Source of the DNA: Octopus vulgaris
Lineage: Eukaryota
DNA: 64,000 nucleotides
NCBI GenBank assembly: GCA_951406725.2
Contig: OX597838.1
Coordinates: forward strand, 13,702,001-13,766,000
Reading direction: 5' to 3'
Shown: positions 120 through 32,640 of the stretch, in pieces
Numbering within the stretch: position 1 is the first letter of the stretch
Layout: every line of letters starts with the position of its first letter
Translations under genes and position numbers: made by a program
The notes under the pieces: generated by a model
Seen by the model: only the letters and a program-made list of their open reading frames with translations
Told to the model about the DNA's origin: nothing
Databases searched by the model: none

Positions 120-1708
120 CCCATACCATAGAAAAAGAAACATCCCATAGAGTATGGCAAGACGCATATGCAGTATAGTGGCCGACTCACAAACACACCA
201 AATAAGACTAAATGAACTTAAAAAGTTCCTACTAGAACAGAAATACCCACTCAAATTAATAAAACATGGAATCTCAAGAGCAATGAAACTGGACATCACA
301 CAACTCAGAACTCCAAAAAACAAAAGCAAAGAAAACATCATCCCATTCATAAACACACAACCCTGGAGTTACCAACATGTTTCAAATTATACAATCAAAC
401 TTACCAATAGTCGTACAAAGCCCCAAAATGGGAAGCCTATTAAACAAAAACTGCGTAAGAAACAGTAAACGCCAAGAAAAAACCTGAAAAAACAACTGAC
501 AAGAGCAAAACCGAATTCTTTGTGAAAGAATGTGGAGATAGTAGATGTGGGATCTGCAGTAACCCCATCTACAAATATATAGAGGAAAACAGCCAAATAA
601 AATTAAGAGTGGACACACATTCAAAATAAATGCAAACATGAATTGCAAGACACAAAACTTAATATATTGCATAACCTGTCCCACGGGCAAGGAGAACTAT
701 ATAGGTGAAACTGGCAATTCTTTATGCCAACGAGCCAGAATTCACCAACAACATATCCGACAGGGAGAGCTACAAAAAATTCCACTAAGTAAACACTTAG
801 AAACACGTGGAGAAGGAAGATTCAAAATCTTTCCCTTCTATAAATGCCCAAAGAATGACACCTTCTTCAGAAAAAATGTGGAATAACACTTCATAGCAAA
901 ATTCTCTCCCAAACTGAATGGCTGAAAATATGAAAATCACATCGACTTCCTTATAAACCCATCTGGAACCCTAAGATATATGCATATGTGGGTGTGTGGA
1001 TGTACATACATAAATAGAGACATTCCTGCATCCAGATTTTCCAACCCATACGGGAATGGGTATCAAGCATTGGACAATAATGATAAGTCCAGATAGTTTT
1101 TTTGAAAAATGACTTTCATTATTCCTCATCAAAACAGACCCCCTTAGAGTAACCATCTGGTCTTGCCATTTTCACAGACCAAGAATCAACTTGTCATCTT
1201 CTATTGAAAGAACCGACCAACTGTATAGATATAAAAACATTTTTTCTTCTTTCTTTCTTCCTTCTCTTTTCCATTGACATTAAGAAAAAACATATTTTTT
1301 CACTTTGAAAATATTTTTCTTTCAGACCCCCTGGTGAGCTGGTTGAACCAAAGTAAGCATCTGTTCTAGCCACCTACTAAAAAATATATTCTTTTCCTTT
1401 TCTCTTTGTCTCTTGTTCAAAATGCTTCCTTTCAGATACACAGGCGCACACACACACAATCACTTTCTCCCTCCACCATCTCCCCATTCCTCTCCCTCTT
1501 TTCTACCCTATACACTCCACATTACTCCCCCCACCCCAACCCATTCACTAATACTATAAAAAGACAAATCCTTTCACTAGATTTAAATCTGAAGAATCTA
1601 TTAGAGCAGATGTAAGCGCTTATATGTGATTTATAGAAACATGTGACATATTAATAAATATTTGTACATGTACAACCATCCAGATCTCTGAGTACCTTAC
1701 TTTTTCTA
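120..1708 (+). mobile_element. Penelope-like element 3' part: RT thumb, GIY-YIG endonuclease and 3' terminal repeat (degenerate)
   Basis: ORF 154-468 (ARRICSIV...LLEQKYP); ORF 638-886 with NLIYCITC...YIGETG...R..H GIY-YIG motif; ends in a (TA)n tract. Confidence 0.85.
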
Positions 1709-1734
1709 ATATATATATATATATATACACAAGT

Positions 1735-2695
1735 TCCTCAAGATGGCTGTGGATCAAAAGAGGAGAACCATGGGGTAGTTAGTTGGCCATCTGGACACGG
1801 GGTCTGATCAGCACCAGTTGTGTCACCTGGAGGAGGGTGTATGATGTTGAAAGATCCCAAAAACACCTGATGATGCCAGGCACATCACTAAAGAGGTGTC
1901 CAGATGCATCAGTCATTGATGTATGCACACAACAAGCACTAAGTTGTCAGTGACAACTAGGATAGACTGGAAGACAACCATGAAGAGGGTGGTGACCACT
2001 GGAGAGTCAGTGACAGCCTGGAAAGGCGGCAACCTGGGCAGAACGGGCTGGCAACCCAATGTGTGTCCTCTGAGGACTCCCAGAATAAGCTACGATGAAT
2101 CCAAAGGAGAAAAACTCCCACGGGTGCCTGAGAGAGAGAGGGGGGGGAGAATGTGTACTCCAGTTGGACAGATATATCGTTAACAGACCCTAGCAATGGA
2201 CAACGGACTACGAGCAAGAAGTGTACATGCGATAAAGTCTGCAAGAACATCCACCGAGTAAGGCTTAAGTGCCCGTTGGAAGCAGAAACATCACATCGCA
2301 CAGGGGTCCAACCTGGTGAGACGCAGGAGAAACCCGGCCCGGCGTCACCCCATAGTGCCTGGAACTAATCCCCTGAGCATCAAATCTGACAGGATGAATT
2401 AAATGGCCAGCATCTAGCATGACCTCACAGTGGAAGCAGTTCGCATCAAGGGAGTGAGAAGGAGGAAGGTCATCCATAGTAACACCAATGCAGCAGAGAG
2501 GGCCACAAGATGGCTGTGGATCGAAAGAGGAGAGCCATGGGGTAGCTAACTGGCCATCTGGACACAAGCTGGGGTCTGATCAACCCCAGCTAGGTCACCT
2601 GGAGGAGAGCGTATGATGCTGAAAGACTCGAAACACTCAATGGTACCAGGCACATTACTGAAGATGTGTCTAGATGCATCTGTCATTCATGTATG
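1735..2695 (+). mobile_element. Hero/R2-group non-LTR element: a 3' end followed by an internally deleted copy
   Basis: N-terminal KKCTCDKVCKN...RTGVQPGETQEKPGPASPH and IKWPASSMTSQWKQF are fused at about 2450 to C-terminal AAERATRWLWIERGEPW. The 3' end/UTR occurs twice (about 1738-1925 and 2507-2695). Confidence 0.7.
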
Positions 2696-2767
2696 TACAC
2701 AACAATATGTACATAAATATATGTATAATAACAAATTAATAAATAAAACATATGCATATATACATGC

Positions 2768-3140
2768 ATATATGGGTACAGGACACCAAAAAAACGAACA
2801 CAAACAAAACCAAGGAAATGGACATTTTTCTTAATGAAAAAACAGAGTACAAGACATACGGCACAAGGAACATTCCCCTTCTTCAGCTGCCTGTTTCATC
2901 TACTCCACGTTTCAAATGTAAAAGTGGGAAGGACTGTTTCAACGAAGTCGTGTCTCGCCTTTACCTTTGAAACGCGGAGTAGATGAAACAGGCAGCTGAA
3001 GAAGGGGAATGTTCCTTGTGTTGTATGTCTTGTACTCTATTTTGTTGTTGTTTAAGAAAAATATCCATTTCCTTGGTTTTGTGTTTATGTTTTCGTTTCT
3101 CATTGTGTTTGACAGTTTTTTGGTGTCCTGTACCCATATA
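2768..3140. repeat. Long inverted repeat (arms about 155-180 bp, spacer about 37 nt), probably derived from a Penelope terminal repeat
   Basis: 2768-2922 is the reverse complement of 2960-3140, with indels; flanked by TA-rich tracts. Confidence 0.85.
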
Positions 3141-3202
3141 TATATATGATAGATCGTTAGCTCCTACACGCATTTTTTGCTTTCCTTGTTTCTCTCTGTG
3201 TA

Positions 3203-3240
3203 TCTTTCTGTCGAAGAGCATAGGCTCGAAACGTAAAAGA
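3203..3240 (+). ncRNA. Minimal hammerhead-like motif with variant core (CTGTCGA)
   Basis: tcttt-CTGTCGA-a-gagc-atag-gctc-GAAA-cgta-aaaga: stem I tcttt/aaaga, stem II gagc/gctc. Confidence 0.55.
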
Positions 3241-3349
3241 CATTTTCTATTCCCGAGCGCTATACTAATACATTTGTTTGTTTGTACTCCACCTGCCTTT
3301 TGTTTATTTTCGTAAACTTTCCCTTTATATATATATATATATATGTATG

Positions 3350-3835
3350 ATATAGGGTAAAGAATTATTAATTCATTAATAATTCTTAAATAATTGTATA
3401 CCCTGTATCTATAATGATAATTCACTCCCTGTTAGTAAATTGCAGTTTTTCTGTGTTACTGCTTGTAACAAGGTTGTAACAAGGTTGAACTTGAGGACAG
3501 ATACGGAATTACTCATTACTCATCTATATAAATTCGGAAATGCTGCCTCTTGTGTTATGTTCAATGTCGCTTGATTGAGCGTGCATGCGTTTGTTAGCAT
3601 TTTCAGATTTATAATCTAGAATATCACGCTGAAGAAGGGAATGAATTTTACACCATTCTAATCCCGAAACGCATACACGACTAACTAAGCCTGGTTGATT
3701 TCGTTATTTTCTCTCCTTTTAGCTTATGTAAGTTACAAGTATTACTGTCTGTTGTGATATAGCGTTGAAGAATTAATAGTTTTAACTGCTATTTCTAAAT
3801 TTTGGTATGTGGTGAAGCAATTTTTGCTGATCCCT
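3350..3835 (+). mobile_element. Penelope-type terminal repeat remnant with degenerate hammerhead
   Basis: CTGAAGA-aggga...tccc-GAAAC at 3629-3670; bounded by (TA)n/(TG)n. Confidence 0.5.
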
Positions 3836-3874
<39 letters not shown>

Positions 3875-3877
3875 GAG

Positions 3878-4836
3878 ACTCGGACGGACGTCAACCAGTT
3901 CCTGCGCCGCCTCAAACTCTGCGCCTTCTATCACGCGTCTCCGCAGCGTCACGACAATCAGGATTGCTTTTTGGAGCTGGGGCGCTGCCCCCGGGCCAAT
4001 TCGGTAGCCTAGACTCGTTTCTGAACGACTGCAACGCGTTGGTAAACCGGTTCAACTTTAAAAAAAGACCTCTCCGAGACAACCTCACATAGGCTGAATT
4101 GGTTGCCCTTCGCCACCTCCGTCGCCGCAATGACATTGTCATCAAACCGGCGGAGCAGTGGTGGTGTGGCGCGCGGATCTCTACAGGGAGGAAGCGCTCA
4201 GCCAGCTTCAAAATCCCCTCTTCTATCGCCTCCTCCCCTCCGATCCTACCTCTTCCTACCAACAGCAAGTGTCCTTCACTATCTACGAACTCATCTCCTC
4301 TTCTGCTTTCCCCCCCCACCGCCACCAACCTCATCGTCCGTACCTCCACCATCTATTTCCTTCCCAAAATTCATAAGCCCAATACCCCTGGCCGCCCCAT
4401 CGTTTCGGCCTGTAATTGCCCAACTGAACACATTTCCCTATATCTCGACCGCATCCTGTCCCCTTTAGTCAAAGCCCTCCCTTCCCACATACATGATACC
4501 AACCACGCCCTCCGTCTCTTCAATTCCTTTTCCTTCCCTTCCAGCCCTTCACACCTCTTCTTCACCCTTGACATCAAATCACTGTATACGGTAATTCCCC
4601 ACAACGACGGTCTCCTAGCTCTCCAACACTTCCTTAACCGTCGTCCCAACCCCACCCTCCTCCGCCTGGCAGAGCTTGTCCTAACCCTCAACCGTTTCAC
4701 GTTTGTCGGGGAAACGTACCAGCAGGTGTCCGGGGTCGCGATGGGAACGAGAATGGGCCCCAATTTCGCCAATCTCTTTGTTGGCTACATTGAGGCCCAA
4801 GTATTCTCCCAATTCTCCGGGCCGACCCCAGAACTA
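3878..4836 (+). mobile_element. Penelope-like reverse transcriptase fragment
   Basis: YFLPKIHKPNTPGRPIVS, TLDIKSLYTVIPH, GVAMGTRMGPNFANLF; frameshifted and truncated before the YxDD motif. Confidence 0.92.
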
Positions 4837-5366
4837 TACAGAAGCAAAGTTCTGGATCGGCCAAAAAATAACTACCACATTACAGGCCGAACCAGCCACC
4901 TTAGAAGAATTCACCGAGGCGATAGATATCGGCGACAAACATCTACCAGTTATGGTAGAGGGCCGCCAACCTAAGTGCTTCCTATGCGGCAAAAAGGGAC
5001 ACCTCAGGAAAAGTTGTGAACTGGCAGAGATAGAGAGAATGGTCAAGTGAGGGATGGATAGCAGCAGCATCAAAAAGAAAGCACAAAAATCCCTCCCCGG
5101 AAAAAGGAAAAACCGAGAAATTAAGAAGGCAAAAAAGCCGGAAAACAACATCAACAACGCTTTTGTCGCAATCCGAACAGTGGAGAGTGAGGTGACGAGG
5201 CGCATCGAGACACACCACCTGCAGGATATAGAGGTGGAAAACAAGTTAAAGAGGAAACTAATAAAGATTTACAAAATAAACCAAAAAACATAACGTGTTG
5301 GCGAACGATTTCAGGTGGGACGTGGGCCCTCTGCGGATGGAGGTCTCGAACCGTCTGTACGAGGGT
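4837..5366 (+). mobile_element. L1/Tx1-like fragments: ORF1 CCHC zinc knuckle and a short ORF2-like piece
   Basis: VMVEGRQPKCFLCGKKGHLRKSC (CX2CX4HX4C) in ORF 4703-5050; abrupt junctions on both sides. The clade assignment is tentative. Confidence 0.6.
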
Positions 5367-6420
5367 CTCAACAACAACTGCCTACAGAAAGATCTCGTCT
5401 ACATATGCGATGTACGATCAGGCCCCGATGATAAAAGAAAATCGTACATCGGAATGACCTCAAATAGTTTTAAGACTCGCTAGTTTTAAGACACACACTC
5501 GTTCCGGCGACCCGACAAATCTAACCAGACTACTCTCGCCGCCCATATCTGGCACCTTAAAAGGAACTCCATCCCCTTCAAGATCAAGTGGAGACTACTC
5601 CAGAGAGCGCGTTCTTACACGGGAGGCCATACTTGCTGTGACCTTTGCATTTCTGAGAGCTTGGAGATCTTATTCGCCAAAGGCCCTCTCCTCAACAAAA
5701 TCTCGGAACACTCCTTGCCCCCTCAACAACAACTGCCTACAGAAAGATCTCGTCTACATATGCGATGTACGATCAGGCCCCGATGATAAAAGAAAATCGT
5801 ACATCGGAATGACCTCAAATAGTTTTAAAACTCGCTGGTACGCCCACACACATTCGTTCCGGTGACCTGACAAATCTAACCAGACTACTCTCGCCGCCCA
5901 TAGGAACTCCATCCCCTTCAAGATCAAGTGGAGACTACTCCAGAGAGCGCGTTCTTACACGGGAGGCCATACTTGCTGTGACCTTTGCATTTCTGAGAGC
6001 TTGGAGATCTTATTCGCCAAAGGCCCTCTCCTCAACAAGATCTTGGAACACCCCCCAAACTGTATGCACAAAATCTATGCAAACTACAAAAATTATAGAC
6101 CCACCCAACCACCCGATTGACGACACCCCCCACCACACCAGTCTGTGACGAACAAGAAGGGCGATGTGGTAAATGAACCTGAGCAGATGTGTCGAACCTT
6201 TCATAGAACTCACTCCTAATACTTCATAAAGATAGCCACACTCTCTAGGATGTCTGGAAAACGTGATTTAGCTGATGAATACGGGACATTTGTATTTGCT
6301 GCAATATTTGCAGCTTTGAATAAAATTGTTCTTAGTATGAAACGATTGTACTAAACTACTAATCCATTCTTGTTGCTTTTCTCTTGGTTTTAAATTTCAA
6401 ACTACTAGCCAATTGAATTA
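5367..6420 (+). mobile_element. Penelope-like (Naiad-like) GIY-YIG domain in two tandem copies plus 3' region
   Basis: CPLNNNCLQKDLVYICDV...YIGMTSNSFKTRWYAH repeated with a period of about 355 bp (copies start at 5367 and 5722); hammerhead downstream. Confidence 0.85.
6267..6355 (+). ncRNA. Type I hammerhead ribozyme (Penelope-associated)
   Basis: tttag-CTGATGA-atac...gtat-GAAA-c-gatt-GTA-ctaaa: intact core, stem I tttag/ctaaa, stem II atac/gtat, minimal stem III. Confidence 0.8.
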
Positions 6421-6851
6421 ATCTAAATAATCATTACCTAGTGGTCAGAATTTCTAAACTCATAGTTATTTCGATCTTGAAAGGATGGACTTGGTGCAAA
6501 CTTAACTGTATCTATTACTATTATTATTAATATTAATATTAATAGTAATTTTTATTGACTTTTATAGCTTTATAATTTTATGAACTGAACCATGGTTTTA
6601 ATTATTATTTTTCATCTCCCTATGTGTTAGTTTTTTAAAACTATTAGCCAAATATGTTTAATAACTGTGCTTATTAATATTAATATATACACTGATATAT
6701 ATTTTGTTTTGTTTACCTTGCATTATTGTACCAATGAGTATTATATTATACAAGTGTAGCATTATGAAGTTTATGCATAAGTTTTTATATTTTACATTTT
6801 TATATTTATATGTATATGGAAAAATAATTTTTTCACAATTATAAATTTAAT

Positions 6852-6961
6852 TCTCTGAAGAGGCCATGGGGCATCCTTGTTAATGCCTCATTTATACCTG
6901 CCTTTATGGCTTATAGGTTAAATGAGGTATGACTGCCCTTGCTGCCGAAACAGCTGTCAGA
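6852..6961 (+). ncRNA. Type I hammerhead ribozyme (Penelope-associated) with long stem II
   Basis: tct-CTGAAGA-ggc...gcc-GAAA-c-agct-GTC-aga; palindromic agct loop; extended pairing gggca/tgccc and cctcattta/taaatgagg. Confidence 0.82.
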
Positions 6962-7144
6962 TTTGATTTAATTACATATTATATTTGAAATGTTATACTT
7001 ATATCTCTTTGTCTATTTACCTTTACTGTATATTTTGTATAATGCCTTTACTGATATGTAATGGTGTAATAGGTATTGATTGGGTATCATCTGATAGTTG
7101 ATGTTTTATTGATTTAAGATGTTTCTCCATTTTCTAATTTTGTA

Positions 7145-7178
<34 letters not shown>

Positions 7179-7189
7179 GAACACCACAA

Positions 7190-8580
7190 CCCTCTTTTCC
7201 AAAACTCACCCCAGTTTTCAGAGTTGGCACTGCCAATGTTGCTAGGTCTAGTGAGATTGTAGAAATGCTTGAAAGGAGACGGGTTGATGTATGCTGCATG
7301 CAAGCAGTAAGATGGAGAGGAGCTTCAGCTAGGATCCTCACAGGCAAGGTAACATGGATGGTGTAGGCATACTCTTTGCAGAGAAATGGGTGAATACGGT
7401 CACAGAGGTTGTTAGGGTATGAGATAGAGGGCTTAAGCTCAGGCTAGTCCTGCAGAATAGCACAGCTACAATTTTCTCCGCCTACGTCCCACATGCGGGA
7501 CTACCAAATGATCAGAAGGACCACTTTTATGATACCCTTCAGGCTACCTCAAAGACAAGTGGCAATGACCTCAGCTTTGTAGCTGGAGACTTCATTGGGC
7601 ATATTGGGCAGGAATCTGGTATCTTCACTAGGGTACATGGTGGCCATGGTATTGACACTCAAAATGATGAGGGAACCAGGCTACTGGAGTTCTGTGATGC
7701 ATGTAACCTTTTAATCTGCAACACTGACTTCAGGAAGCCAGACAGCCACCTTATAACCTATAAATCAGGGGTCTGCTAGCCAGATCGATTTCATCCTCAC
7801 CGACAGTGGGACGAAGGATTGCTCTTAAATACAAAGACCCTCCCAGGTGAAGAATGTACCCCCCAGCATAGGCTAGTGATTAGTGACTTTAGGCTCGAGG
7901 GCAGAAGGATACCAAGAAGCAGACCAATCCAGAAAAGAAGGATTTGGAAGCTAAAGAACCATTCACATGGTCAGAGATTTAGGGACATCCTCATCAAGAA
8001 ATTTGAGAAGAGGGAGGAGGAGCTACAGACATCGGACATAGAAGGTAACTGGAAATTCCCAAGAGACAGCTTGCTGAGTGCCACAGACCAAGTCTGCGAA
8101 TGGTGCAAAGTCCCTTCCAGACCTAGAGTTACATGGTGGTGGAATAGTACGGTAGACAAAGTCATTAGAGCAAAGAAACAGGCCTTGAAAGCCTGGAAGG
8201 GTGGGGGTAGCAGGGAACTGTACCAGGTAGCCAAAAGGGAGGCTGGGCGGTGCATATACATAGCCAAGGTCAAAGCGGAGAAGAAGTTTGCCAATGTCCA
8301 GTGACACGAGGACCAAAGAACTGAGGTATTTCAGATTGCAAAACAGCGAGAGGAAATTGTGATGTCACAGAAGAGAAATGTGTCTGCATGGATGACGGTG
8401 CACTTGCTTTTAATGATTCTGAAAAGAAAAAGGCTTGGAGAAAGACTGCTGAATGTGAAGAATGAATGGGAGGAGGAGAACCAGCCAAATGTTGACCCAG
8501 TAGAGGGACCAGCTTTCCCAATAGACAGCTCCCTAGTAGATAAAGCAATTAAGGGTATGAAGCCAGGAAAAGCCCCCTCT
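7190..8580 (+). mobile_element. RTE-clade LINE fragment (APE endonuclease plus linker), degenerate
   Basis: RVGTANV...EMLERRRVDVCCMQ.VRWRG, AGDF, QHRLVISD, TWWWNS, KAIKGMKPGKAP; truncated at the start of the RT. Confidence 0.85.
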
Positions 8581-8690
8581 GGACAATGCAAATCTCAAGG
8601 TTCAAGTGAAGCAGACATGGCCAGGTACAATGCAGGATGTGCTGGCTAGGGCTCTGGAATTCGAGCCATACATCAAATCTAGCATAAAAT
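8581..8690 (+). mobile_element. Gypsy gag-like fragment
   Basis: VKQTWPGTMQDVLARALEFEPYIKSS resembles the Gypsy gag P.TL.EAL..ALE.E motif. Confidence 0.45.
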
Positions 8691-8747
8691 TATTGCCAAT
8701 GTGTCTGTCTGAACACATCAGCAAAAAAAAAAAAAAGGGTGTGTGTG

Positions 8748-8787
<40 letters not shown>

Positions 8788-8791
<4 letters not shown>

Positions 8792-11700
8792 TCCGGCGCG
8801 ATTGTCAATCACAGAATATAACTGGTTACTTATCCATAGGATTAATGACTTCATTTTTTTTTCTAAATATATAGTCGCGAACTTTCCTCTCTTCTTATCT
8901 TCTACCAGCTCTCAATCTCTCTAAATACACAGTCACTTTCTTTCTCTACCCTCTATCACACTATTAAATTTTAAATATAATTAGATAGATAAATAAAATA
9001 TCCAACATGTCCAGAACCTGGAGAAGTGACGAATTGGCGTTGTTCCAGAGAGCCTGGCAATGCGCCGACGGAGATAACCCTAACAATATAATTACAGCTG
9101 CGCTGAAGACCGGCAGTTATAAAAGGACAATAGCTCAGATAGAGTGGAAGGAACAGGAGTTCATACGCTCCTATGCACTTGTACAATCTCACATTGGCAT
9201 GCTTGATGCCATCTTTGACAACGAACAAAGTAAAGATGGCAAGGATGGAGATGCGGGTGCTGATGAAAAAAGTCACCCCCACCTGGTAGACACCCATGAA
9301 GAAAACTCCATGGCGTTGTTCCTGAGAGCCTGGCAATGCGCCGATGGAGATAACCCTAACAATATAATTACGGCTGCGCTGAAGACCGGCAGTTATAAAA
9401 GGACAATAGCTCAGATAGAGTGGAAGAAGCAGGAGTTCATACGCTCCTATGCACTTGTACGATCTCACATTGGCACGCTTGATGCCATCTTTGACAACGA
9501 ACAAAGTAAAGATGGCAAGGATGGAGACGCGGGTGCTGATGAAAAAAGTCACCCCCATCTTGTAGACACCCAGGAAGAAAACTCCAGTGAGAAACCTGCC
9601 CGGGAAGTAAACATAAGTGCAAGTGATCCTACCAGCACCAAAAGCCATGGAGATGAAAGAACCAAAAAAGGAGGAAAAACTAAAAAATGAAACAGCCAAG
9701 GATAGAAGCAAACCTGACTATCCATATACCAAAAAGAATGGAAACAGACAGCGCACACGGGTGTGCAGGTTCTACCTGAGAGGTGTCTGCTGGCATGGAG
9801 AGGAAGGTGCACGCGGGCTTTTTAGCACATCGGGGACCCTGCCGCAGAGACACGAAACAGGTCAGAAACCAACTACAAAAAGGAAAAGGGATGGACCACG
9901 CACCACCTGCCCCAAAACGGAGGTACGCAGATGTGGTGCGTGCTACAAACCGCCAACATGTTATTGAAAGGGCAGCTGCTGAACAAGAATCTTTTTTGTG
10001 CATGGCACAAAAGATTGTACAGCAGCTAACCTGGCTCCATCAAACTCAAACTCACAGATGGGACTATCCACAATACACAAGACCACCACAGCAAATAGAC
10101 CCAAGGAGGACACCGCTGGCAACAGCATACACCTCACCTCGATGCTCCTACTGAACATCAGAGGACTGCTAACACTCAGTAACAGGACAAAAATCCTGTT
10201 CCTGAGAGATTTTGTTGCATGCAATCAAGCCTTATGCATAGCACTAACGGAAATGCACCTGAAACCGGATATAGCAGATGCGGAGTTACAGGACCAAAGG
10301 GTGAAAAAACCAGGAATAGAAGTGGAATCGCAAAAGATGGAAACAAACAGCGTACACGGGTGTGTAGGTTCTACCTGAGAGGTTCCTGCTGGCATGGAAA
10401 GGAAGGTGCAGGCTGCTGCTTTGCACATCGGGGACCCTGCCACAGAGACACGAGGCAGATGGACAAACCATCAACACAAGGAAAAGGAATGGACCACGCA
10501 CCACTTGCCCCAAAGCGGAGGTACGCAGATGTTGTGTGTGCCACAAACCACCAACATGATGTTGTCGAAAGGGCAGTTGCTGAGCAACAATCTTTTTTGT
10601 GCATGGCACAAAAGATTGTACAGCAGCTGACCTGGCTTCATCAAACCCAAGCCCGCAGGTGGGACTACCCACTATATACCAGACCACCACAGCAAACAGA
10701 CCCAGGATGGACACCACCGGCAACAACGTACACCTCACCTCGATGCTCCTACTGAACATCAGAGGACTGCAAACACTCAGTAACAGGACAAAAATCCCGT
10801 TCCTGAGAGATTTTGTTGCATGCAATCAAGCCTTATGCATAGCACTTACGGAAATACACCTGAAACCGGATATAACAGATGCGGAATTACACATACCACA
10901 GTATGTTGTACTACGGACTGACAGAAAAGAAAGGAGTCATGGAGGAGTTGCTAAGTACATTCGTGAGGACCTCACACCCCAGGTCCTTTTGTCATACTCA
11001 AACTCGGTGTGTGACACACTAATTGTACATATAAGGCAACGTGGTGTAGTTGTGTGTGCTACATATCGCCCTCCAGGTGCCCCATGGACCACACACTACC
11101 TGCCCCAAAACGGAGGTACGCAGATGTGGTGCGTGCTACAAACCGCCAACATGTTATTGAAAGGGCAGCTGCTGAACAAGAATCTTTTTTGTGCATGGCA
11201 CAAAAGATTGTACAGCAGCTAACCTGGCTCCATCAAACTCAAGCTCGCAGATGGGACTATCCACAATACACAAGACCACCACAGCAAATAGACCCAAGGA
11301 GAACACCGCCGGCAACAGCATACACCTCACCTCGATGCTCCTACTGAACATCAGAGGACTGCTAACACTCAGTAACAGGACAAAAATCCTGTTCTTGAGA
11401 GACTTTGTTGCATGCAATCAAGCCTTATGCATAGCACTTACGGAAACACACCTGAAACCGAACATAGCGGATGCGGAATTACACATACCACAGTATGTTG
11501 TACTACGGACTGACAGAAAAGAAAGGAGTCATGGAGGAGTTGCTATGTACATCCGTGAGGACCTCACACCCCAGGTCCTTTTGTCATACCCAAACTCGGT
11601 GTGTGACACACTAATTGTACATATAAGGCAACTTGGTGTAGTTGTGTGTGCTACATACCGCCCTCCAGGTGCCCCATGGACCATGCACTACCTGCCCCAA

Positions 11701-12517
11701 AACGGAGGTACGCAGATGTGGTGCGTGCTACAAACTGCCAACAAGAATCTTTTTTGTGCATGGCACAAAAGATTGTACAGCAGCTAACCTGGCTCCATCA
11801 AACTCAAACTCGCAGATGGGACTATCCGCAATACACAAGACCACCACAGCAAATAGACCCAAGGAGAACACCGCCTGCAACAGCATTCACCTCACCTCGA
11901 TGCTCCTACTGAACATCAGAGGACTGCTAACACTCAGTAACAGGACAAAAATCCCGTTCTTGAGAGACTTTTGTTGCATGCAATCAAGCCTTATGCATAG
12001 CACTAACGGAAATGCACCTGAAACCGGATATAGCAGATGCGGAGTTACAGGACCAAAGGGTGAAAAAACCAGGAATAGAAGTGGAATCGCAAAAGATGGA
12101 AACAAACAGCGTACACGGGTGTGTAGGTTCTACCTGAGAGGTTCCTGCTGACATGGAAAGGAAGGTGCAGGCTGCTGCTTTGCACATCGGGGACCCTGCC
12201 ACAGAGACACGAGGCAGATGGACAAACCATCAACACAAGGAAAAGGAATGGACCACGCACCACTTGCCCCAAAGCGGAGGTACGCAGATGTTGTGTGTGC
12301 CACAAACCACCAACATGATGTTGTCGAAAGGGCAGCTGCTGAGCAACAATCTTTTTTGTGCATGGCACAAAAGATTGTACAGCAGCTGACCTGGCTTCAT
12401 CAAACCCAAGCCCGCAGGTGGGACTACCCACTATATACCAGACCACCACAGCAAACAGACCCAGGATGGACACCACCGGCAACAACGTACACCTCACCTC
12501 GATGCTCCTACTGAACA
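8788..12517 (+). mobile_element. CR1-group LINE 5' part (ORF1 Myb/SANT-like + CCCH; ORF2 APE N-terminus) in a scrambled tandem array
   Basis: ORF1 9007-9690 with an internal duplication; repeated RVCRFYLRGxCWHG...AH and MLLLNIRGL...IALTETHL...RTDRKERSHGGVA blocks. Confidence 0.85.
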
Positions 12518-13450: not shown

Positions 13451-13507
13451 TATCTTCTTGTCTTCTCTCGAACATAGTTAGATAAACAAATAGACAGATC
13501 ATCCAGC

Positions 13508-16690: not shown

Positions 16691-16764
16691 TACCACTGCA
16701 GATATAAAATCAGAGGCAGCGATGATTGATTACATAACACTTTGAATTATTTATTTATTGAGAA

Positions 16765-19564: not shown

Positions 19565-22500
19565 ATACCAAGATGGCGCCGAACTAACAACAAGTGTGTG
19601 TTAACGTGTCTCTCCTAAAGATTAAAGAAGTCCTTCCAGAGATCGATGTTATCAGAAGCGAAATTTGTCTGCAAAGTGAATATAAGTGAAAGTACAAGAC
19701 ACTGTATTTGAGAAGAATATTTTCGCTTTTGATATAGTATTTGCAACTAGAACATACCTCGTGAATACATGTGTTAAAAAGCATGTGTGTTACTTCCTGC
19801 AATCGAAGTGAATTTGTCTGCGAAATTTTTTGTCTGTGAAACAACAAGACACAATATTTTAGAGAAGGATATTTTTGCTTTTGATGTCGTATATCTGCAT
19901 GTTCTGAAAGCCTCTGAAAATTTGCTGCCTAATACCAAATCGCTTAAGAAAATATAGAAAGTATCGTTAATTTTTTGCATCTACGAAATCGGAACTCTAA
20001 TTCCTTTTGTTTACAAAATACGATTGAGGAATATCAAAGGTCTATCTTCCTTTCTTATAAAACAGAATCACGGTAAGTATTCTCTCTCTCAGCCAGTAAG
20101 GTAAGAAAAATATTATTTATTATCATTAGTGTTCTTTCAACCAGAAGATAATAATTAAAAAACGATCTGTCTCTCCATCCACCAGACCCTCTATATCCGT
20201 TCTCTCTCTCCCTCTGCCATCGTTTCTCTTTCTGCAACTCTCTCAGATCAACTTTCTCACATCTCACCCCCCTCTCAGTTCCTCAACTTCACTCATTCTC
20301 TCTTGTATCTATATACCGCCCTCTTTCTCTCTCTCTCTGTTACTCCCCCTCCCTCTCCCTGCTCCCCCCTAGGGTCCACCCTCTTGTCTCTCTTCTCCAC
20401 CCTGTCCCTTTACTTTCTTTCTATTACACCTCTATCCCGCTCACTCTCCTGCCATTCTTTCTCTTTTTTCCCTCTTTTTCTCTCTTCTCTCAGGACAATC
20501 CCCTCGTCTCTCTATCCCCCCCCCGGCTTTTCTCCTTTCTCCTCTCCAGTCAACCATCTTATCTTTCCTTCTCTCTCTGTTCCTATATTTCACTCTCACT
20601 ATATCTCAGACGAAAATGTCAAGAAACTGGTCTGCGAGAGAGGTGCGATTGTTAGTCCGCGCTTGGAGGATTGCTGAGGACGACTCGCTGAACAATATCA
20701 TTGCAGTGGTGCTGAAGAGCAATGATTTTTCAAGAACCACCGCCCAGATAGAGCGAAAGAAACGAGAATTTATCCGTTCATACGCTCTAATCAGGCAACA
20801 TGTAGACACCCTGGACATCATCCTAGGAGGTGACGGCACCAGGGAAGGCCAAAAGGATGAAGAAAACATCCAGAACCAAACGGAGAAACCTAGAACACAG
20901 GGAAACAATGACACATGTCCAGCTCCCACACCACAACTGAAGACCAAAGAGGTGTGATGGCCGCAAGTAAAGAAAAGCACCCTAAAATTGATGGGAAACA
21001 GGAGGTAAAAGGCGACAAAATCAAAGCTAAAAGAAACCCTGTCCAGAGAAAACAAAAGGACCCCAGCAAGAACTATAAGGGCAAAGAAAGAAACATCTGC
21101 AAATTCTACCCGAAGGGGGACTGCTGGTACTGCGTCGAAGGTGCGAACTGTCGCTTTGCACATCAGAGGCCCTACCAAAACCGCACGGACGCCAGACAGG
21201 GGTCCCTCCCTCGGGGAGAACAAAAAGAAAAATATAGAAGGGAAAAAAGCGCACTGACCACTCCTGAAAGACGATATGCGGATGTGGTGCGCGGTAACCC
21301 AACAAATGGCCAGCTTCACCCAGATGTGAGAAGGGCAGCAGCTGAACAGCAATCTTTTTTGTGCATGGCACAAAAAATTGTTCAGCAGCTGACCTGGCTA
21401 CAAGCACAAAGCTGGAACTACCACCACATAAGGCCACCACCAACAGATGCAGGATGGCCACCACACACACCATGAAAATATTTCTACTGAATGTAGGAGG
21501 GCTGCTGCGCGGAAACTGCAAAAGGAAAATCTCATTCCTGAGAGACCTTGTGACATGCAATCAAGCTATATGCATGGCACTCACAGAAACGCATCTTGAA
21601 CCCGATATAGGTGATGCAGAAATACACATGCTGCAATATGCCGTCATACGCACAGATAGAAAAGGGAGGAGCCATGGTGGAGTTGCAATGTACATCCGAG
21701 ATGACCTCATGCCCCAGGTCCTGCTGTCATATTCAAACTCAGTATGTGAAACTCAAATTGTACACATAAGACAACTGAATATCATCATATGCACTACATA
21801 TCGCCCACCAGATGCCCCTAAACACTCAGGCATGTTTGAAGACTGCCTAACAAAAATAGGAGAAGTCCTCACCAACCTTGAACAACACAATAGTGTATTC
21901 TTCATGAGTGACTTTAACCTCCCCAATGTGGAATGGCCTGGGGGGGCAGATGCTCCCAGGGATGACACACCATCAGCAGGCACAGGTGGAGTCCCTGCTC
22001 CATCTCACAAATGCCTCTTTTATGGAGCAAATAGTTCTGCAACCAACAAGGGCAGATAATATACTGGATCTCTGCTTCACAAACAATATGGATATTATCC
22101 ATAATGTTAATGTGATGCCGACAATGATCTCGGATCACAACATAATAGAGCTGTCTATGTATGGAACAAAAGCCCCCGTAGACACACAGCCTATACGAAG
22201 CACCCACCATCTCTCCAACTTAAACTTTCATAAAGCCAACTGGAAGTTGATTGAGAAAGAGATCCTCAAACAGGATTGGCCTGAATGTCTCTCCACACTG
22301 GACATAAACATGAGACACAAACACTTCATGTCCATAATACAAGCCATATGTGACAAATATGTCCCAGTGTGTAGGGCCAGCACACACAAGAACAAAAACA
22401 GGATCCCTAGAGAAAGGAGGATTCTTATGAGACGACGGACAAGGATTGCGAACCGCCTGAGCAAGCACACCAAAAGTGGTGAGAAGTCTTGGCTCGAATG

Positions 22501-23078
22501 CTAATGGAAACTGAGAAAAGTCTACATCAGTCCCATGAAAAGGAGAGAGCAGATAAAGAAGCTTGGGTAATAGAAAATATAAAATCAAACCCTAAAGCTT
22601 TCTTTAAGTTTACCACAGAGACAGCCACAGTGCACCAGAGAATAGGACCTCTCTTCCAAAAAGATGGCTCTCTCACAGGAAATCCCACGAGGATAAGTGA
22701 AATACTGAACGAACAGTTCCAAAGTGTGTTCACTACACCTCTAGAACACAGGCAAGTAAACAACCCAGAAGAATTCTTTGCCACTTTACCTGTGGCCAAA
22801 GAGGCAAAAATTGAGTACATCAACATCGAAGATGATGATATCATACTAGCCATAGATGAGATTGACACAAACTCAGCTGCTGGACCTGATGGATTCCCAG
22901 CGATCCTTCTCAAATCATGCAAATGAGCCCTTGCAAAACCGCTACAGCTTCTTTTTCAGAGCTTTCTTGCAAGTGGTAAGCTCCCAGTCAAATTGGAAGA
23001 GGGGTTAATATGCCCTATCCATAAGGGAGGTAGCAGAGCAGATGCTAAAAATTATAGGCCTATCTCTCTGACCTCACA
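19565..23078 (+). mobile_element. CR1-group LINE copy 3 (diverged subfamily): putative 5' region, ORF1, APE, start of RT
   Basis: ORF1 MSRNWSAREVRLLVRAW... (20616), ICKFYPKGDCWYCVEGANCRFAH, APE from 21472, ends at PIHKGGSRADAKNYRPISLTSH. The 5' boundary (caagatggcg) is tentative. Confidence 0.85.
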
Positions 23079-24965
<1,887 letters not shown>

Positions 24966-25850
24966 GCGGAGGTTGCCCATCAAGTGAAGCGGACAGTGAC
25001 GGGTGTGGGTTGGAGGAACCCCGTGTTGCGGAAACTAAACCGGATGTTGCAGAAACCGAAAAGCCTGCTGAATGTGTGCTGTCTGCTGCTGCTGTTCCGT
25101 GTCTGGAGCCTTTGGCATCTCGACCCCCTGTCTTCCGGGACTCAGGTCGAAGGGCTGGTGAAGTCTGGAGCTGATGTCGCTGAATCCGAGGAGCTGGCTC
25201 TGTGTGTGGTCGTCGTTGCAGTTGATGTGCCGTGTGTGAGTCCTTTGGTGACTGGGCCTGTCTCTTGGGGCTCAGGAGGACTGTCGGACGAACTTGCATG
25301 TTGTGAAGCCTTCGGTGCAGAAGCTGGTGAGGAAGAGGACCAAGCCTGGTGACGAGGCGAGACGGCTGCGAACGGTGGTAGGTCTACCAAGACCAGGAAG
25401 ACTGCTCCAGTGTCAAGTGAGTTAGTGAAAGCCCAAGTGAGGGTCGGGTGGACCCTGGTAGAAGCAGAAGCTGGCAGGGTCAGCCGATCTTTTGGAAGTG
25501 GCACAGGCGATTTTGTAGAGGGCAAATCGAGGAATCGTGCCAGATGGTGAACCAGCGGCAGGGCCAGTTCTGCCAATACAGTAATGCAGTCGATGGAGAT
25601 GGTGGTCTACCTGTGCAGTTGCGGAAGTGGTCCTCAAGGAGTCGCCGGTGCTTGGTTGGCACTCGGGTGAGCTTTGTGTTCGATGGTTGCATGGGGCTGG
25701 TGGAGCCCGATAGGCAGTGCATGCTGAAAGCCCAATTGAGGGTCGGGTGGACCCTGGTGGAGGCAGAAGTTGACAGAGCGCTGGTTGGGTCGGCCGATTT
25801 AATGAAGGCTGCGCAGGCGATTCGTCGCTGCCATTCTTAACTAAGAGCTA
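24966..25850 (-). mobile_element. Unclassified GC-rich coding-like fragment, possibly the N-terminus of an R2-group element
   Basis: Ser/Pro/Thr-rich minus-strand ORFs with Cys/His remnants; internal repeat 25425-25490 / 25725-25800. Confidence 0.3.
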
Positions 25851-25899
25851 ATACGGCCTTTTTGGATTATCGCCTAACATCGGTTGAGGACTCTTACAC

Positions 25900-27228
25900 A
25901 CAGAAGAATTTAATATGGATGCATATTACATAGATTATTCTATGAAAAATATACCAATCCCATCAAAGGAATTTTACTCAAAGAATCTTCTACAGAAAAT
26001 TACTGATCTAATTAAGCACATGAGATGGAAGGCTTTCTTTTTTGATACAGAAGCGGACACCAAGGAAAACATTTTCTATCGAATAAAATCCAAAAAATTC
26101 CCTCCCAGGATTAAAGGCTTGGAAGATTTCGAAGCGGACCTGCTGAAAATTATGAACAAAATAAAATTTCGTAAGTCTTTTAACAATTTCCATCATAAAT
26201 TGAAAAAAGATATTAAACATATAAAAAGCCCTCCCCCAAAAAGAGGCCTTTATTACTATTAAAGATCACAAAGAGAACTTCCTTTCCAACCCTAAATGTA
26301 GGCTTATCAACCCAGCCAAGTCAGAACTTGGCATTATTAGTAAAGAAATTTTAGATAAAATAAATGCGAAAATTAAGACCGATACTAGGCTAGTACAATG
26401 GTCCAATAGTATAGAAGTCGTAGACTGGTTTAAAGCCATTAAGAATAAGAAAAAAGCGAGGTTTACACAATTCGATATTGTTGATTTTTATGCTTCTATC
26501 TCTAAACAACTGCTAGATAAAGCCCTCGTCTTCACAGAAATTAGTACAAATGATAAGGACATAATCTTCCATGCTAGAAAGACCTTACTTTTCAGTGAGA
26601 ACGCAAAGTGGGTCAAAAACACCGACACAGAGGGCGCTTTCGAAGTGAGCATGGGGTCAAATGATGGGGCAGGCATTTGCGATCTTATTGGATTTTTTCT
26701 CCTAGATACCTTAGGTAAGACATTCCCTGACGTACATTTCGCCATCTACAAAGATGATGCCCTTGCCTTAACAGCTAATACAAATGGACCAGCACAAGAT
26801 CGTTTTAGGAAGGATATTATCCAGCTAATGAAATACTTCGGACTTAGTATAACTATAGATACTAACCTGACGGTTGTCAATTTCTTAGACGTTTCCTTAG
26901 ATCTTAATAAGAATATTTATAAGCCTTATAGGAAGCCCAATGATAGACTAAGTTACATTAATGTAGGTTCATGCCATCTCCCTATAGTATTCAAAAATTT
27001 AGTTAAAAATATTAGTAAGAGAATTTCTAGCCTCTCCTCCGATAAGGACATTTTTAATAGCGTTGCCCCAGTTTATAATAAGGCTTTAAAAGATAGTGGT
27101 TTTCGCGAAAAAATAAAATATACACCCGTTACTAGCCCAACAGTAAGGAAAAGGAATAATAGAAATAGGAAGGTAATCTGGTTTACACCCCCTTACTCAC
27201 CCGAGGTGGCCTTCAATATAGGTAAAGA
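25900..27228 (+). mobile_element. Penelope-like (Naiad-like) RT fragment, family 1
   Basis: MRWKAFF, KDHKENF..NPKCRLINPAKSELG, QFDIVDFY, MGSNDGA, YKDD, NFLDVSLDL, IWFTPPYS. Confidence 0.88.
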
Positions 27229-30170
27229 AAACTTAGGCCTTAGGATTACCTTAGACTCGAACTTAACCAAAGCTAACTTCCTTGACGTTACCCTCGATTT
27301 AGAAACCTTCCTTTATTACCCGTACCATAAACCTAATGAATCCCTTAGATACATAGACATTAATTCTAACCACCCCAAAAATATATTAGACAACGAATTA
27401 GATGGTCTTTTTCGACCACCCTGATGTAGCATCTACCAATAATGAAATGTACGGCTTCAAATCTAATAAGGCTCCTCCCACCAACAGCCTACTTGAACCC
27501 TTTGAAGAAGACCTCTTCCTTATGATAAAAAATATCAAATTCAGGAAAGTCAACCTACCTTTCCAAACGGACCTTAATGAGAAACTCTCGAAAATGAAAA
27601 GCTCCCCGCACCTCCATGTCCCTTCCGACAAAACAAAAAATATTTACGCGGTGATTCCCGATACCTACAACAGACTGGCTGATAACGCCATCACAGCTAA
27701 GTACAAAAAAGTTGATGACACGGCTTTAACTGAAAGTAACTTAGCCGGGAAGAAGATCGCCACTTCCCTTAAACTGGATGACCGAACAGAACCTCTGAGG
27801 GTGAAGTCCCCACACTTCACCCTGAAAGACCACAAAAACAATTTCGACAATAAACCATCGGTCCGACTGATTAACCCAACCAAGTCTGACATTGGATCTG
27901 TCAGTAAGAAGATCCTGGACAGGATTTTACCTAAAATACGTGAAGCATCACCCCTTCCACTCTGGAATAGGACTTCCGAGGAAATAACTTGGTTCCGAGA
28001 TTTATCTGACAAGAGCAACACCCGCTTCCTACAATTAGATATCTAGGAATATTACGCCTCTATATCGGAGAGCCTGCTGATTGACATGATTAACTTCGCT
28101 AGGACCTTCTCCACCATCACCGAAGCCGAGCAGGATGTGATCCTCCATGCACGTAAGACCTTTCTTTACCATGACGGATCCCACTGGATCAACAAAAAAT
28201 CCTAGACCCCCTTCAACGTCAGCATGGGTGCTAGCGACTCGGCTGAAATAAGTGACCTTGTGGGCCTAGTCATCCTCCATAGGTTGAAGACCCTATTCAC
28301 AGGCCTCTCCGGTGGTCTCTACCGCGATGATGGCCTTTTTGCCCTCCACAAAATAAACCCTAGGACCACGAATGGGTTCCGGAAAAACCTTTATACTTTT
28401 TTTAAAAACTTAGGCCTTAGGATTACCTTAGATTCGAACTTAACCAAAGCTAACTTCCTTGACATTACCCTCGATTTAGAAACCTCCCTTAAATCGCCAC
28501 TTCCCTTAAACTGGATGACCGAACAGAACCTCTGAGGGTGAAGTCCCCACACTTCACCCTAAAAGACCACAAAAACAATTTCGACAATAAACCATCAGTT
28601 CGACTGATTAACCCAACCAAGTCTGACATTGGATCCGTCAGCAAGAAGATCCTGGACAAGATTATACCTAAAATACATGAAGCATCACCCCTTCCACTCT
28701 GGAATAGGACTTCCGAGGCAATAACTTGTTTCCGGGATTTACCTGACAAGAGCAACACCCGCTTCCTACAATTAGATATCGAGGAATATTACGCCTCTAT
28801 ATTGGAGAGCCTGCTGATTGACGCGATTAACTTCGCTAGGACCTTCTCCACCATCACTGAAGCTGAGCAAGATGTGATCCTCCATGCACGTAAGACCTTT
28901 CTTTACCATGACAGATCCCACTGGATCAACAAAAAATCTGAGACACCCTTCAACGTCAGCATGGGTGCTAGCGACTCGGCTGAAATAAGTGACCTTGTGG
29001 GCCTAGTCATCCTCCATAGGTTGAAGACCCTATTCACAGGCCTCTCCGGTGGTCTCTACCGCGATGATGGCCTTTTTGCCCTCCACAAAATAAACCCTAG
29101 GATCACGAATGGGTTCCGGAAAAATCTTTATACTTTTTTTAAAAACTTAGGCCTTAGGATTACCTTAGATTCGAACTTAACCAAAGCTAACTTCCTTGAC
29201 ATTACCCTCGATTTAGAAACCTCCCTTAAACTGGATGACCAAACAGAACCTCTGAGGGTGAAGTCCCCACACTTCACCCTAAAAGACCACAAAAACAATT
29301 TCGACAATAAACCATCAGTCCGACTGATTAACCCAACCAAGTCTGACATTGGATCCGTCAGCAAGAAGATCCTGGACAAGATTATACCTAAAATACGTGA
29401 AGCATCACCCCTTCCACTCTGGAATAGGACTTCCGAGGCAATAACTTGGTTCCGGGATTTACCTGACAAGAGCAACACCCGCTTCCTACAATTAGATATC
29501 GAGGAATATTACGCCTCTATATTGGAGAGCCTGCTGATTGACGCGATTAACTTCGCTAGGACCTTCTCCACCATCACTGAAGCCGAGCAAGATGTGATCC
29601 TCCATGCACGTAAGACCTTTCTTTACCATGACAGATCCCACTGGATCAACAAAAATCCGAGACACCCTTCAACGTCAGCATGGGTGCTAGCGACTCGGCT
29701 GAAATAAGTGACCTTGTGGGCCTAGTCATCCTCCATAGGTTGAAGACCCTATTCACAGGCCTCTCCGGTGGTCTCTACCGCGATGATGGCCTTTTTGCCC
29801 TCCACAAAATAAACCCCAGGACCACGAATGGGTTCCGGAAAAACCTTTACACTTTTTTTAAAAACTTAGGCCTTAGGATTACCTTAGATTCGAACTTAAC
29901 CAAAGCTAACTTCCTTGACGTTACCCTCGATTTAGAAACCTCCCTTTATTACCCGTACCATAAACCTAATGAATCCTTTAGATACATAGACATTAATTCC
30001 AACCACCCCAAAAATATATTAGACAACCTAGTGAAAAGTGTCTCCATTAGGATATCTAGCCTCTCTGTCACCGAGGATATCTTTAATGCCGCAGCCCCCT
30101 ATTACGAGGCCCTGGCCCGCAGTGGCTTTAGAGATAAGATCACCTACATTACTTTTTCCGAAGCCCATCC
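27229..30170 (+). mobile_element. Penelope-like (Naiad-like) RT, family 2, with a tandemly triplicated RT core of about 720 bp
   Basis: Three copies of TLKDHK...RLINPTKSDIG...LDIEEYY...MGASDSAE...GLYRDDGL...NFLD; ctggatgacc recurs at about 27774, 28511 and 29231. Confidence 0.9.
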
Positions 30171-31841
30171 AGCATCCGACAGCAACTGCCCTGATAAGAC
30201 TACTTGCCCAGGACATGACAAACTGTGTCATATTAGACCAGTAACTGACAAACTTTCTGAGACATGCTTGGAAAACTACAATCCTCATAAAGAACAGTCC
30301 ATTGATTAAGGAATGATAACCTTCAAAGGAAGACTGTCATTCAAACAGTACTTACTGGCCAAACCCACAAAATTTGGAATAAAAGTATGGGAGCGTGCTT
30401 CACCGAACAATGGATACGTATGGTGAAGGACCTAACTTGGAAATTGATTGGAAAATCGCATGTGATTTACATGGACAATTTTTTATCAAGCCCAGAACTG
30501 AATGCTTGTTACATGAAAAGATCTACTCTTGTGGCACTGTTGGAATAAATCGCCGTGGAATGCCAGAAGCCATCAGAAGTGCCAAATTAAAGAACAGAGG
30601 AGAATCCCTTACAATGCAGAAAGGCAACCTAGTAGCAACAGCATGGAAAGACAAGAAGATTGTGACTTACCCAAGCACAAACTGCGATCCTACACGGAGT
30701 AGTGCAAAGACGTCAAAAGGATGGGACCCTAAAGGATGTGTCAGCTCCAAGTGTTTCCGAGCTATACAACAAATATATGTTTGGTGTAGACTTGGCTGAC
30801 CAAAAGAGGCTGCAGTATTCCACTTGCAGAAAAGCCAAAAAAATGGTACAAGTACTTGTTTTGGTTTTGTTTTGATCTTGCACTTGGCAATTCCTTGATT
30901 TGCATGCAAGAATCGCCAAATCATAAGCTGCTGACCAAAACAAACAAGGAAAAAAAGAGAACGCAGTTGGACTTCAGAATGGCATTGGCGCAGCAGATGA
31001 TCGGAACATTCAGAGGAAGTAGAAAGCATAGGGCACCTGGAATGACGGGAAATTGTGAGGATGCACATTGGCCCATTCAATTTGAAAGAGCTGGACGATG
31101 TAAGGGATGTGCAAAGCAGAACAAGAGACACGAAGTCTCTACTGGATGCAGACAATGTAATGTTAGACTGAGCATAAAGAATGACTGCTTTTGCAAGTAC
31201 CACCAAGAACCGTTAAAATGAATTAATTACACTTATTGTGTATATTTCAAGGAATGCTATGTAAATATTGTAAATGAATGCCATTTTTGAAATAATTAAC
31301 TTTTGGGGGTTTATAAAACTGAATTTATAAAATATTCCAATAAATAAATGAGACGCTGCCAGCTACCACCAATCAACAAAAAGGCTGGCCAGGCAGAAAA
31401 AACCCTGCAAGAGTCAAGTCTGTTGGTTCGAGGAGCACAACTATTCAACTCCATTCCGGTACATGTCAGAAATCTATCAGGATGCAGTGTGGAATCATTC
31501 AAATTGCAGCTGGATAGATACTTAAGCACCATTAGAGATGAACCCCATCTCCCAGGATATACACAACGAGCACAAACTGACTCAAACTCGCTCCTACACA
31601 TGTCAAAATTAAACAGAGAATACAACCTGGCAACCACACCAGACTCTGAGGGTGGAGTCTTCGACTTGGCCTGAGCATGGACTCAAACTCAAATGAAATG
31701 AAATTGCGAGTTTTATGTGTGTACCATTCATTCCAGCAGCAAAATATCTCTGGTAATTAACCCTCACACTGCTGCTGCAGTGAGAGATAAGAACTGTGTA
31801 GTAGTGAACAGCCAGATTGGCTATGATAGATAAGAGGTTAA
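30171..31841 (+). mobile_element. piggyBac transposase fragment with 3' end
   Basis: DKLCHIRP, SID*GMITFKGRLSFKQY..KPTKFGIKVW, W.DKK.V, C-terminal Cys-rich domain (to 31221); terminates ...agaggTTAA at 31841; interrupted by a LINE tail. Confidence 0.88.
31345..31703 (+). mobile_element. CR1-group LINE 3' end
   Basis: GAQLFNSIPVHVRNLSGCSVESFKLQLDRYLSTIRDEP...SNSL; (GAAAT)n tail. Confidence 0.8.
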
Positions 31842-32640
31842 TGAAATTGTACTTAATAAGGCCCTAATATATGCAATGAATAAGGTGGAAATGACCAAGG
31901 ATGAAGTTAAAGTAGTAAAAATGGCCAGAAAATCATTTATCAGGTATAATAATAAATTGTGGTCTAGGAAAGACACCAGGGATTTTTTTTGATATCCCTA
32001 TGGGAGCACCAGATTCCGCACAGGTTACAGACTATTAGGGATTTACTTATTAGCAGAACTCCAATTAGAAAATTAATATATTGGAGGGTAAATAACAGGT
32101 ATAACCCAACCTTATCATAAAATTAACAAAAACCTGGAATATATTAATGCTAAGAGTAACCATCCACCTTCAATTAAGAAAGCATTAGCAAATAATATAG
32201 GGAAAAGAATTTCATTACTTTCTTCCAACTATGGGATATTCAATAAATATGCACCATATTATAATGAAGCACTTCATAAGGCAGGATATAACAATAATAT
32301 TTTAAAGAAAACAATAAATATAAGGACATATTTTCTAGCAATAAATTTGGAGTTGGTTATTCTACCACTAATGTTGGCAATATCATTTCATCCTTTAATA
32401 AATTTAAATTTAATAAGTTTTATAATAATAAATTAATACCTCCAATGGAGACCAGAATACAATTGATTGTAATTGTAGAGATAAGACTAAATGTAAATTT
32501 AATAAATGTAATGTTGAGGATGTAGTATATAAATGTATTGTGATTTTGAATGGTAACAAATACTTACATAGGATCGACTTCCAATAAAACTAAATCACAG
32601 GTGGCCCAACATATGAATTCTTTTAAGAACAGAAATTTGG
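31842..32640 (+). mobile_element. Penelope-like (Naiad-like) RT/GIY-YIG remnant, family 3
   Basis: MARKSF...FDIPMGSTDSAQVTD, SNHPPSI, CNCRDK..C, VVYKC...YIGST. Confidence 0.75.

Follow-up and report, generated by a model that had tools for sequence, protein, structure and literature searches.

Why should fragments of many unrelated transposable elements (TEs) lie packed almost wholly on one strand directly behind an S-phase replication gene? The question is raised by a 64,000-nucleotide stretch of Octopus vulgaris DNA (contig OX597838.1, positions 13,702,001 to 13,766,000; hereafter the window, with coordinates counted from its first letter and negative ones lying to its left), in which a mosaic of TE pieces adjoins the gene POLE2. 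The mosaic is a real, non-random feature. It is likely, with a probability of about 0.65, a uni-strand precursor of PIWI-interacting RNAs (piRNAs) made by read-through from POLE2; its small-RNA output, the strand of its RNA and its continuity with POLE2 are what we infer here. That it is a piRNA source under either type of promoter is considered quite probable.

The mosaic measures ~48.3 kb (-15,700 to 32,630). Its right two thirds (1..32633, plus strand) lie in the window; 200 kb left of the window was fetched, and the far end was traced to ~13,686,300 on the contig (L002:4300), where DNA rich in microsatellites and short interspersed nuclear elements (SINEs) follows. Pieces were identified with Pfam and by tblastn and blastn against copies elsewhere in the genome. 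An earlier model-made reading of the letters (the sequence-only reading) had described a multi-lineage fragment mosaic at 120..32640 that ran past the left window edge; its Penelope-like, Hero (by motif), Tx1-like, RTE, CR1-group, Gypsy and piggyBac pieces were all recovered, and the mosaic proved to continue 15.7 kb further. Over the 48.3 kb the lineages are several Penelope-like, four CR1-group subfamilies, RTE, Tx1-like, Hero-like, Gypsy, piggyBac, ISXO2-type and perhaps Crypton-type, an ISXO2/Merlin-type transposase and a possible Crypton piece being added by the leftward extension. No complete element was seen in the mosaic, as had been claimed. An assembly artefact was ruled out: a DNA run covers 29/30 bins of 24150-35700.

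Orientation was measured by mapping a 199-protein library (frames of TEs from the octopus genome, and piggyBacs from elsewhere) to 22 regions, minus each region's own proteins; the 21 controls were 13 flank or arbitrary windows (ordinary windows) and 8 windows picked around TE hits (TE-dense windows). The coding pieces of the mosaic number 21 on the plus strand and 2 on the minus strand (P=7e-5), or 21,981 versus 255 bp (99% plus), with a longest same-strand run of 16 pieces. By hand, with tandem duplicates collapsed and DNA-level matches added, ~28-30 plus pieces stand against 3 minus pieces (28:3, P=4.6e-6); these counts take assigned pieces, and the gaps could hide further pieces on either strand. 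The sequence-only reading had given about 20 plus pieces and three short minus ones of about 2 kb; the minus pieces counted here (23154-24018, 24330-24568 and -70..111) sum to ~1.3 kb. Two of the three are young nested insertions: the SINE, which is flanked by a target-site duplication, and a CR1 3' end that sits in a Gypsy-derived element. The bias is as strong for Penelope-like, CR1, RTE and Tx1 pieces as for DNA transposons. The TE-dense controls carry 52-78% on their major strand. A seeming minus match at -9510 arose from an inverted end in the query, and the piece is plus.

Density and content set the mosaic apart further. TE-coding sequence makes up 46% of it, the highest share of the 22 regions (2.6-10.9% in the ordinary windows, 20-35% in the TE-dense windows). 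A single SINE was found in the 48.3 kb (0.21 per 10 kb), as against 4-36 per control window, or 2.2-8.1 per 10 kb in ordinary windows. Copies of long interspersed nuclear elements (LINEs) are usually 5'-truncated, and the mosaic reverses this pattern. When endonuclease-type LINE pieces were merged and compared, 7/9 in the mosaic were 5' parts without reverse transcriptase (RT), versus 3/98 in ordinary windows (P=1.6e-7) and 11/63 in TE-dense windows (P=6e-4); RT and 3' sequence account for 4% of the LINE-coding bp in the mosaic, 86% in ordinary windows and 65% in TE-dense ones. The Penelope-like pieces of the mosaic retain RT. About 11 kb of the mosaic is tandem re-copying, of which ~7.8 kb (8.9-16.7 kb) re-copies two CR1 subfamilies in tandem, with joints that overlap by 1-2 bp; the other tandem block is a Penelope-like family at 27.2-30.1 kb. 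Several joints fall at (TA)n tracts, a symmetric target, which was counted in favour of the piRNA-precursor reading. The comparison with ordinary windows proposed by the sequence-only reading gave a mixed answer: nominal strand bias does occur among the controls, but none of the 21 pairs it with comparable density (maximum 35% versus 46%) or with 5'-biased LINE pieces.

The neighbour on the right, overlooked by the sequence-only reading, is a complete POLE2 gene on the minus strand (33413..59132; residue 1 at 59132, residue 522 at 33416). Its exons (59,132-33,416) match residues 1-522 of the 522-residue Octopus sinensis POLE2, mostly at 95-100%, which bears out the cephalopod origin named in the sequence-only reading, and the gene was also matched to the human chain 5vbn_A. 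The stop lies at ~33,413, and ~0.8 kb onward in the direction of the gene the mosaic begins, which is the placement of a read-through cluster; the interval is the 3' untranslated region (UTR), with a SINE (32634..33412, minus). Placement of the mosaic inside a POLE2 intron was rejected, the C-terminus being encoded by the last exon. No minus-strand AATAAA occurs from the POLE2 stop to 29,945 (3.4 kb).

Transcription was examined in four runs mapped as contigs to 24150-35700, that is, the right fifth of the mosaic and the end of POLE2. Runs X1 and X19, from separate studies with separate species labels, skip the last POLE2 intron (33493-35341; joint 33492>35342) with GT-AG on the minus strand; they are therefore RNA, and POLE2 is an expressed gene. 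In X1 all 30/30 bins show depth, and its contigs lie at 25098-25357, 25350-25857, 27365-27785, 30166-31380, 31675-32073 and 32777-33030, with POLE2 mRNA from 33043. Nowhere else in the genome does a copy of the piggyBac or the Gypsy-derived stretch exceed 85% identity, and contigs on these two stretches are therefore locus-specific. X19 and X2 contigs also lie on parts of the piggyBac piece, X2 being counted as RNA by guess only. Because the POLE2-splicing runs X1 and X19 carry contigs on single-copy parts of the mosaic, the mosaic is transcribed within 24150-35700. The X1 assembly totals 74 million letters versus a 2.8-Gb genome, which counts against bulk carry-over of DNA. Two signals were set aside: in the bin 35344-35700 the depth equals that of the exon alone (X1, 10.1 versus 10.06; X19, 91.1 versus 89.9), the intron part being uncovered, and the X19 POLE2 contig stops at 32650 within the SINE, which was not taken as a poly(A) site.

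On the proposed mechanism, polymerase would pass a weak 3' end of POLE2 and carry on leftward into the mosaic, giving an RNA antisense to nearly all pieces. Processing of this RNA would yield antisense piRNAs that target the Penelope-like, CR1, RTE, Tx1 and Gypsy families and those of DNA transposons. Selection would have retained antisense insertions, and deletions and tandem duplications would have trimmed them to fragments. SINEs and the 3' ends of LINEs are common in the neighbourhood of host genes; they would have been under-retained, and their loss would, by hypothesis, keep piRNAs from matching host RNAs too often. The general idea of genomic autoimmunity has been published (PMC5168828, PMC8290110). 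A fuller version is speculative and on balance doubtful: the locus might be the first TE-memory locus known from a cephalopod, with an S-phase replication gene as its driver and a content edited for self/non-self discrimination, keeping the 5' LINE halves found only in full-length active copies, shedding SINEs and LINE 3' ends, with which host transcripts are strewn, and remembering a piggyBac family with no other detectable copy.

Published systems are compared here as described in the available parts of each source. The locus appears most like the read-through clusters of mosquitoes and the mammalian piC-DoGs, and less like flamenco. The read-through core piRNA clusters of mosquitoes (bioRxiv 10.1101/2022.08.22.504762) are likewise unidirectional, lie directly after an expressed coding gene and hold antisense foreign fragments; that account stresses non-retroviral viral cargo and shows piRNAs, chromatin and knock-down, whereas the octopus cargo consists of LINE, Penelope-like, Gypsy and DNA-transposon pieces known here from genome layout and contigs. 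The piC-DoGs (Konstantinidou et al. 2024, PMC11615739) share dense antisense TE fragments over tens of kb right behind a normally spliced host gene. They differ in their definition, which draws on small-RNA data and on RNA-seq of read-through in gonocytes, and neither a 5'-half bias among LINEs nor an exclusion of SINEs is mentioned in the available text of that report. Strand-biased TE fragments also mark flamenco and flam-like loci of Drosophila (van Lopik et al. 2023, PMC10643416), a kind of locus that has been predicted from the layout of a genome before being confirmed, but these loci span hundreds of kb with a Gypsy-only bias; the octopus mosaic has 48 kb, non-LTR (long terminal repeat) elements dominate, and every lineage is biased, so that a Gypsy-specific strand bias is absent. 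In molluscs (Jehn et al. 2018, PMC6128900; Deroceras, PMC12506671), clusters are enriched in young TEs, and in the slug Deroceras the top 21 are unidirectional (PMC12506671); these clusters are from snail, oyster and slug, and the available texts make no mention of a read-through origin. Octopus carries Piwil1/Piwil2 (PMC6128900), and piRNAs have been profiled in O. bimaculoides arms (PMC12479628). The sequence-only reading had proposed a uni-strand TE-memory piRNA locus on the model of flamenco; of this proposal the layout and the transcription of the mosaic are borne out, and POLE2, 0.8 kb away, offers a natural minus-strand driver, but flamenco is not the closest model.

Several observations weigh against a read-through piRNA precursor. 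No contig bridging the POLE2 UTR and the mosaic is among those listed, the breaks falling at the SINE and at skipped repeats. The contigs themselves are strandless. X1 differs by T>C at 18 sites and by A>G at 3 (P=2e-4 given the base composition), compared with 16 versus 14 in the DNA run (Fisher P=0.019 for the contrast); as a sign of adenosine-to-inosine (A-to-I) editing of a minus-strand RNA this excess is a weak hint, because of the 13 T>C sites listed for X1 the DNA run shares 6, and another 2 agree with tandem paralogs. On its minus strand the mosaic has no fewer AATAAA than shuffled sequence (28 versus 25.3), and no minus-strand depletion of poly(A) or splice-donor motifs was found across the mosaic. 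The TE-dense controls are SINE-poor too (0.8-5.0 per 10 kb; one SINE-free 32-kb gap). Orientation bias alone is not diagnostic, because 2/21 controls are nominally biased (9:1 and 17:5; P ~0.02) and another, TE-dense control is mostly minus over ~38 kb.

Some of these points lend themselves to other explanations. Flamenco has its own promoter, and a uni-strand piRNA cluster here could likewise start from one of its own between 32.3 and 33.4 kb, with POLE2 merely adjacent. The missing bridge between UTR and mosaic would agree with such a start, as would the X2 mosaic contigs, which come without a listed POLE2 splice joint; but only 0.8 kb separates gene and mosaic, much of it SINE, and the X1 contigs form a tiling path that starts in the last POLE2 exon (33043-33492, 32777-33030) and enters the mosaic, interrupted at repeats, and we regard a separate promoter as improbable. 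A long minus-strand transcript with no silencing role, be it an extended POLE2 3' end or a long non-coding RNA, might instead have been purged of sense insertions that disturbed it, which would make the orientation an everyday case of the antisense bias seen in transcribed DNA. One-sided runs are indeed present in some control windows, and AATAAA is in excess of shuffles on the plus strand of the mosaic (70 versus 45), so sense-oriented pieces would carry terminators. Purging accounts for orientation, but not for the coding density, the loss of SINEs or the 5' LINE bias, and the window over the POLE2 introns is SINE-rich (8.1 per 10 kb), with strands at 7:5 and 6% coding; it seems an unlikely explanation. 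Least credible, and in our view very improbable, is a neutral TE nest built by tandem duplication and chance orientation under leaky transcription. The extent of tandem re-copying speaks for it, as do TE-dense windows elsewhere that are SINE-poor and up to 35% coding; yet the bias persists with duplicates collapsed and spans at least 8 lineages, and the excess of 5'-only LINE pieces stands even against the TE-dense controls.

The pieces themselves are, from left to right in the window, as follows. The right end of the SINE (1..111, minus; whole, -70..111), 97% identical to another copy and with its target-site duplication, sits inserted in a Penelope-like piece; its orientation was read from the usual B-box layout of SINEs. 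A Penelope-like C-terminal/GIY-YIG piece (115..931, plus) is followed by a Hero-like remnant (1736..2705, plus) that comprises a 3' end, an N-terminal zinc-finger part and a second 3' end, without RT; the Hero label leans on N- and C-terminal motifs typical of the family and not on a database match. Non-coding, presumably Penelope-like ends, with one head-to-head inverted pair and no assigned orientation, occupy 2710..3860 and include a hairpin (2862-3020) and two hammerhead-like motifs on the plus strand. The long hairpin, a head-to-head repeat pair, would give double-stranded RNA from either strand. A hammerhead-motif scan gave 2 sites on the plus strand and 0 on the minus strand, numbers too small to be of use; within the mosaic Rfam returned only hairpin and microsatellite look-alikes below the gathering score and no family of hammerheads, and the stretch 20600-36000 gave no match at all. 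In the part of the mosaic left of the window, a 154-residue plus-strand frame (L001:2960-3421) resembles recombinase core-binding/ALOG/QRICH1-type domains with feature scores of 0.91-0.96; it is possibly a Crypton-type transposon piece, a label that draws on known links between such domains.

A Penelope-like RT piece (3877..4840), a Tx1-like ORF1 piece with a CCHC knuckle (4840..5368), a Penelope-like GIY-YIG piece that is itself duplicated in tandem (5367..6054) and an RTE 5' part with endonuclease and linker but without RT (7243..8576) come next, all plus. The block at 8893..16742 (plus) holds CR1-group 5' UTR, ORF1 and endonuclease sequence of two subfamilies, without RT, re-copied in ~600-bp and larger units; it has 94-98% DNA identity to its best ~40 copies elsewhere. 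An 87-bp tandem array in it (12979-13450) belongs to the CR1-group 5' UTR and occurs in copies elsewhere too. There follow a Gypsy integrase and LTR-side piece (16746..19088, plus), 93% identical to a copy with a 1038-residue pol frame, and a young 447-bp repeat of no assigned orientation (19116..19563), 98% identical to many copies and possibly a Penelope-like end. The third CR1-group subfamily runs from 5' UTR to the start of RT (19539..23078, plus), and the fourth contributes the exceptional minus piece, 865 bp of the ORF1 5' part (23154..24018).

To the right of it, a lone C2H2 zinc-finger repeat (24024..24122, plus) could yield antisense piRNAs that match host zinc-finger mRNAs. The Gypsy-derived non-autonomous element (24123..25825, plus; best other copy 85% identical) carries RNA contigs and encloses the other exception, a CR1 3' end (24330..24568, minus) 96% identical to another copy. 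The extended open frames that the minus strand shows at 24570-25850 were rejected as shadows of this plus-oriented element. A Penelope-like piece of a young family (25833..27226, plus; 93-97% amino acid identity in 124 other matches scored, many with 717-residue frames) precedes a second Penelope-like family whose RT region stands in 720-737-bp tandem copies (27227..30150, plus). The piggyBac transposase piece (30166..31218, plus) also carries RNA contigs. It is 56-86% identical to transposases from outside the genome; no other DNA candidate or close relative was found in the genome, and while one outside transposase reaches 70-71% identity, at least 76 other matches scored reach at most 45%. 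Among the copies scored, those from octopus are all more distant from this orphan than transposases of bivalves and unnamed sources, and the family may have been lost or horizontally acquired. A CR1 3' end (31348..31704, plus) and two Penelope-like pieces (31834..32522, plus) form the right end of the mosaic.

A 212-bp CR1 3' end is found near both ends of the mosaic (31494-31704; L002:4537-4748) in direct orientation, the two copies being 96.7% identical. Two tRNA-Val(TAC) genes on the minus strand (L003:5573-5645 and 7595-7667; window ~-24,400 and -22,400) lie inside a ~2-kb duplication, 7-9 kb past the left end, and are a possible boundary. A trypsin-like exon (L004:9215-9859, plus; window ~-30,800) converges with POLE2 on the mosaic. 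Elsewhere in the genome, a run of ~38 kb (L210-L214, G000:C7:109,959,000-109,997,500) consists of RTE, Gypsy and R2-like pieces that are older and more diverged, nearly all minus, and accompanied by SINEs; this run may reflect intronic bias or an older cluster. Another run (L190-L191, G000:C10:2,700,000-2,717,400) has 13 plus-strand pieces, mostly R2-like, and the 50-kb window around it contains a 17.5-kb SINE-free gap.

Octopus genomes are rich in transposons, and no cephalopod piRNA cluster was found described in the literature, which was covered at abstract level and mostly in non-subscription sources; a supplementary table could already list this locus. The locus supplies exact single-copy probes for small-RNA data (30166-31218 and 24570-25830). 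If it is confirmed as a piRNA source fed by POLE2, a spiralian would join mosquitoes and mammals as a setting of read-through biogenesis, and the 5'-half LINE bias would let one measure how a cluster has been shaped so that host RNAs are spared.

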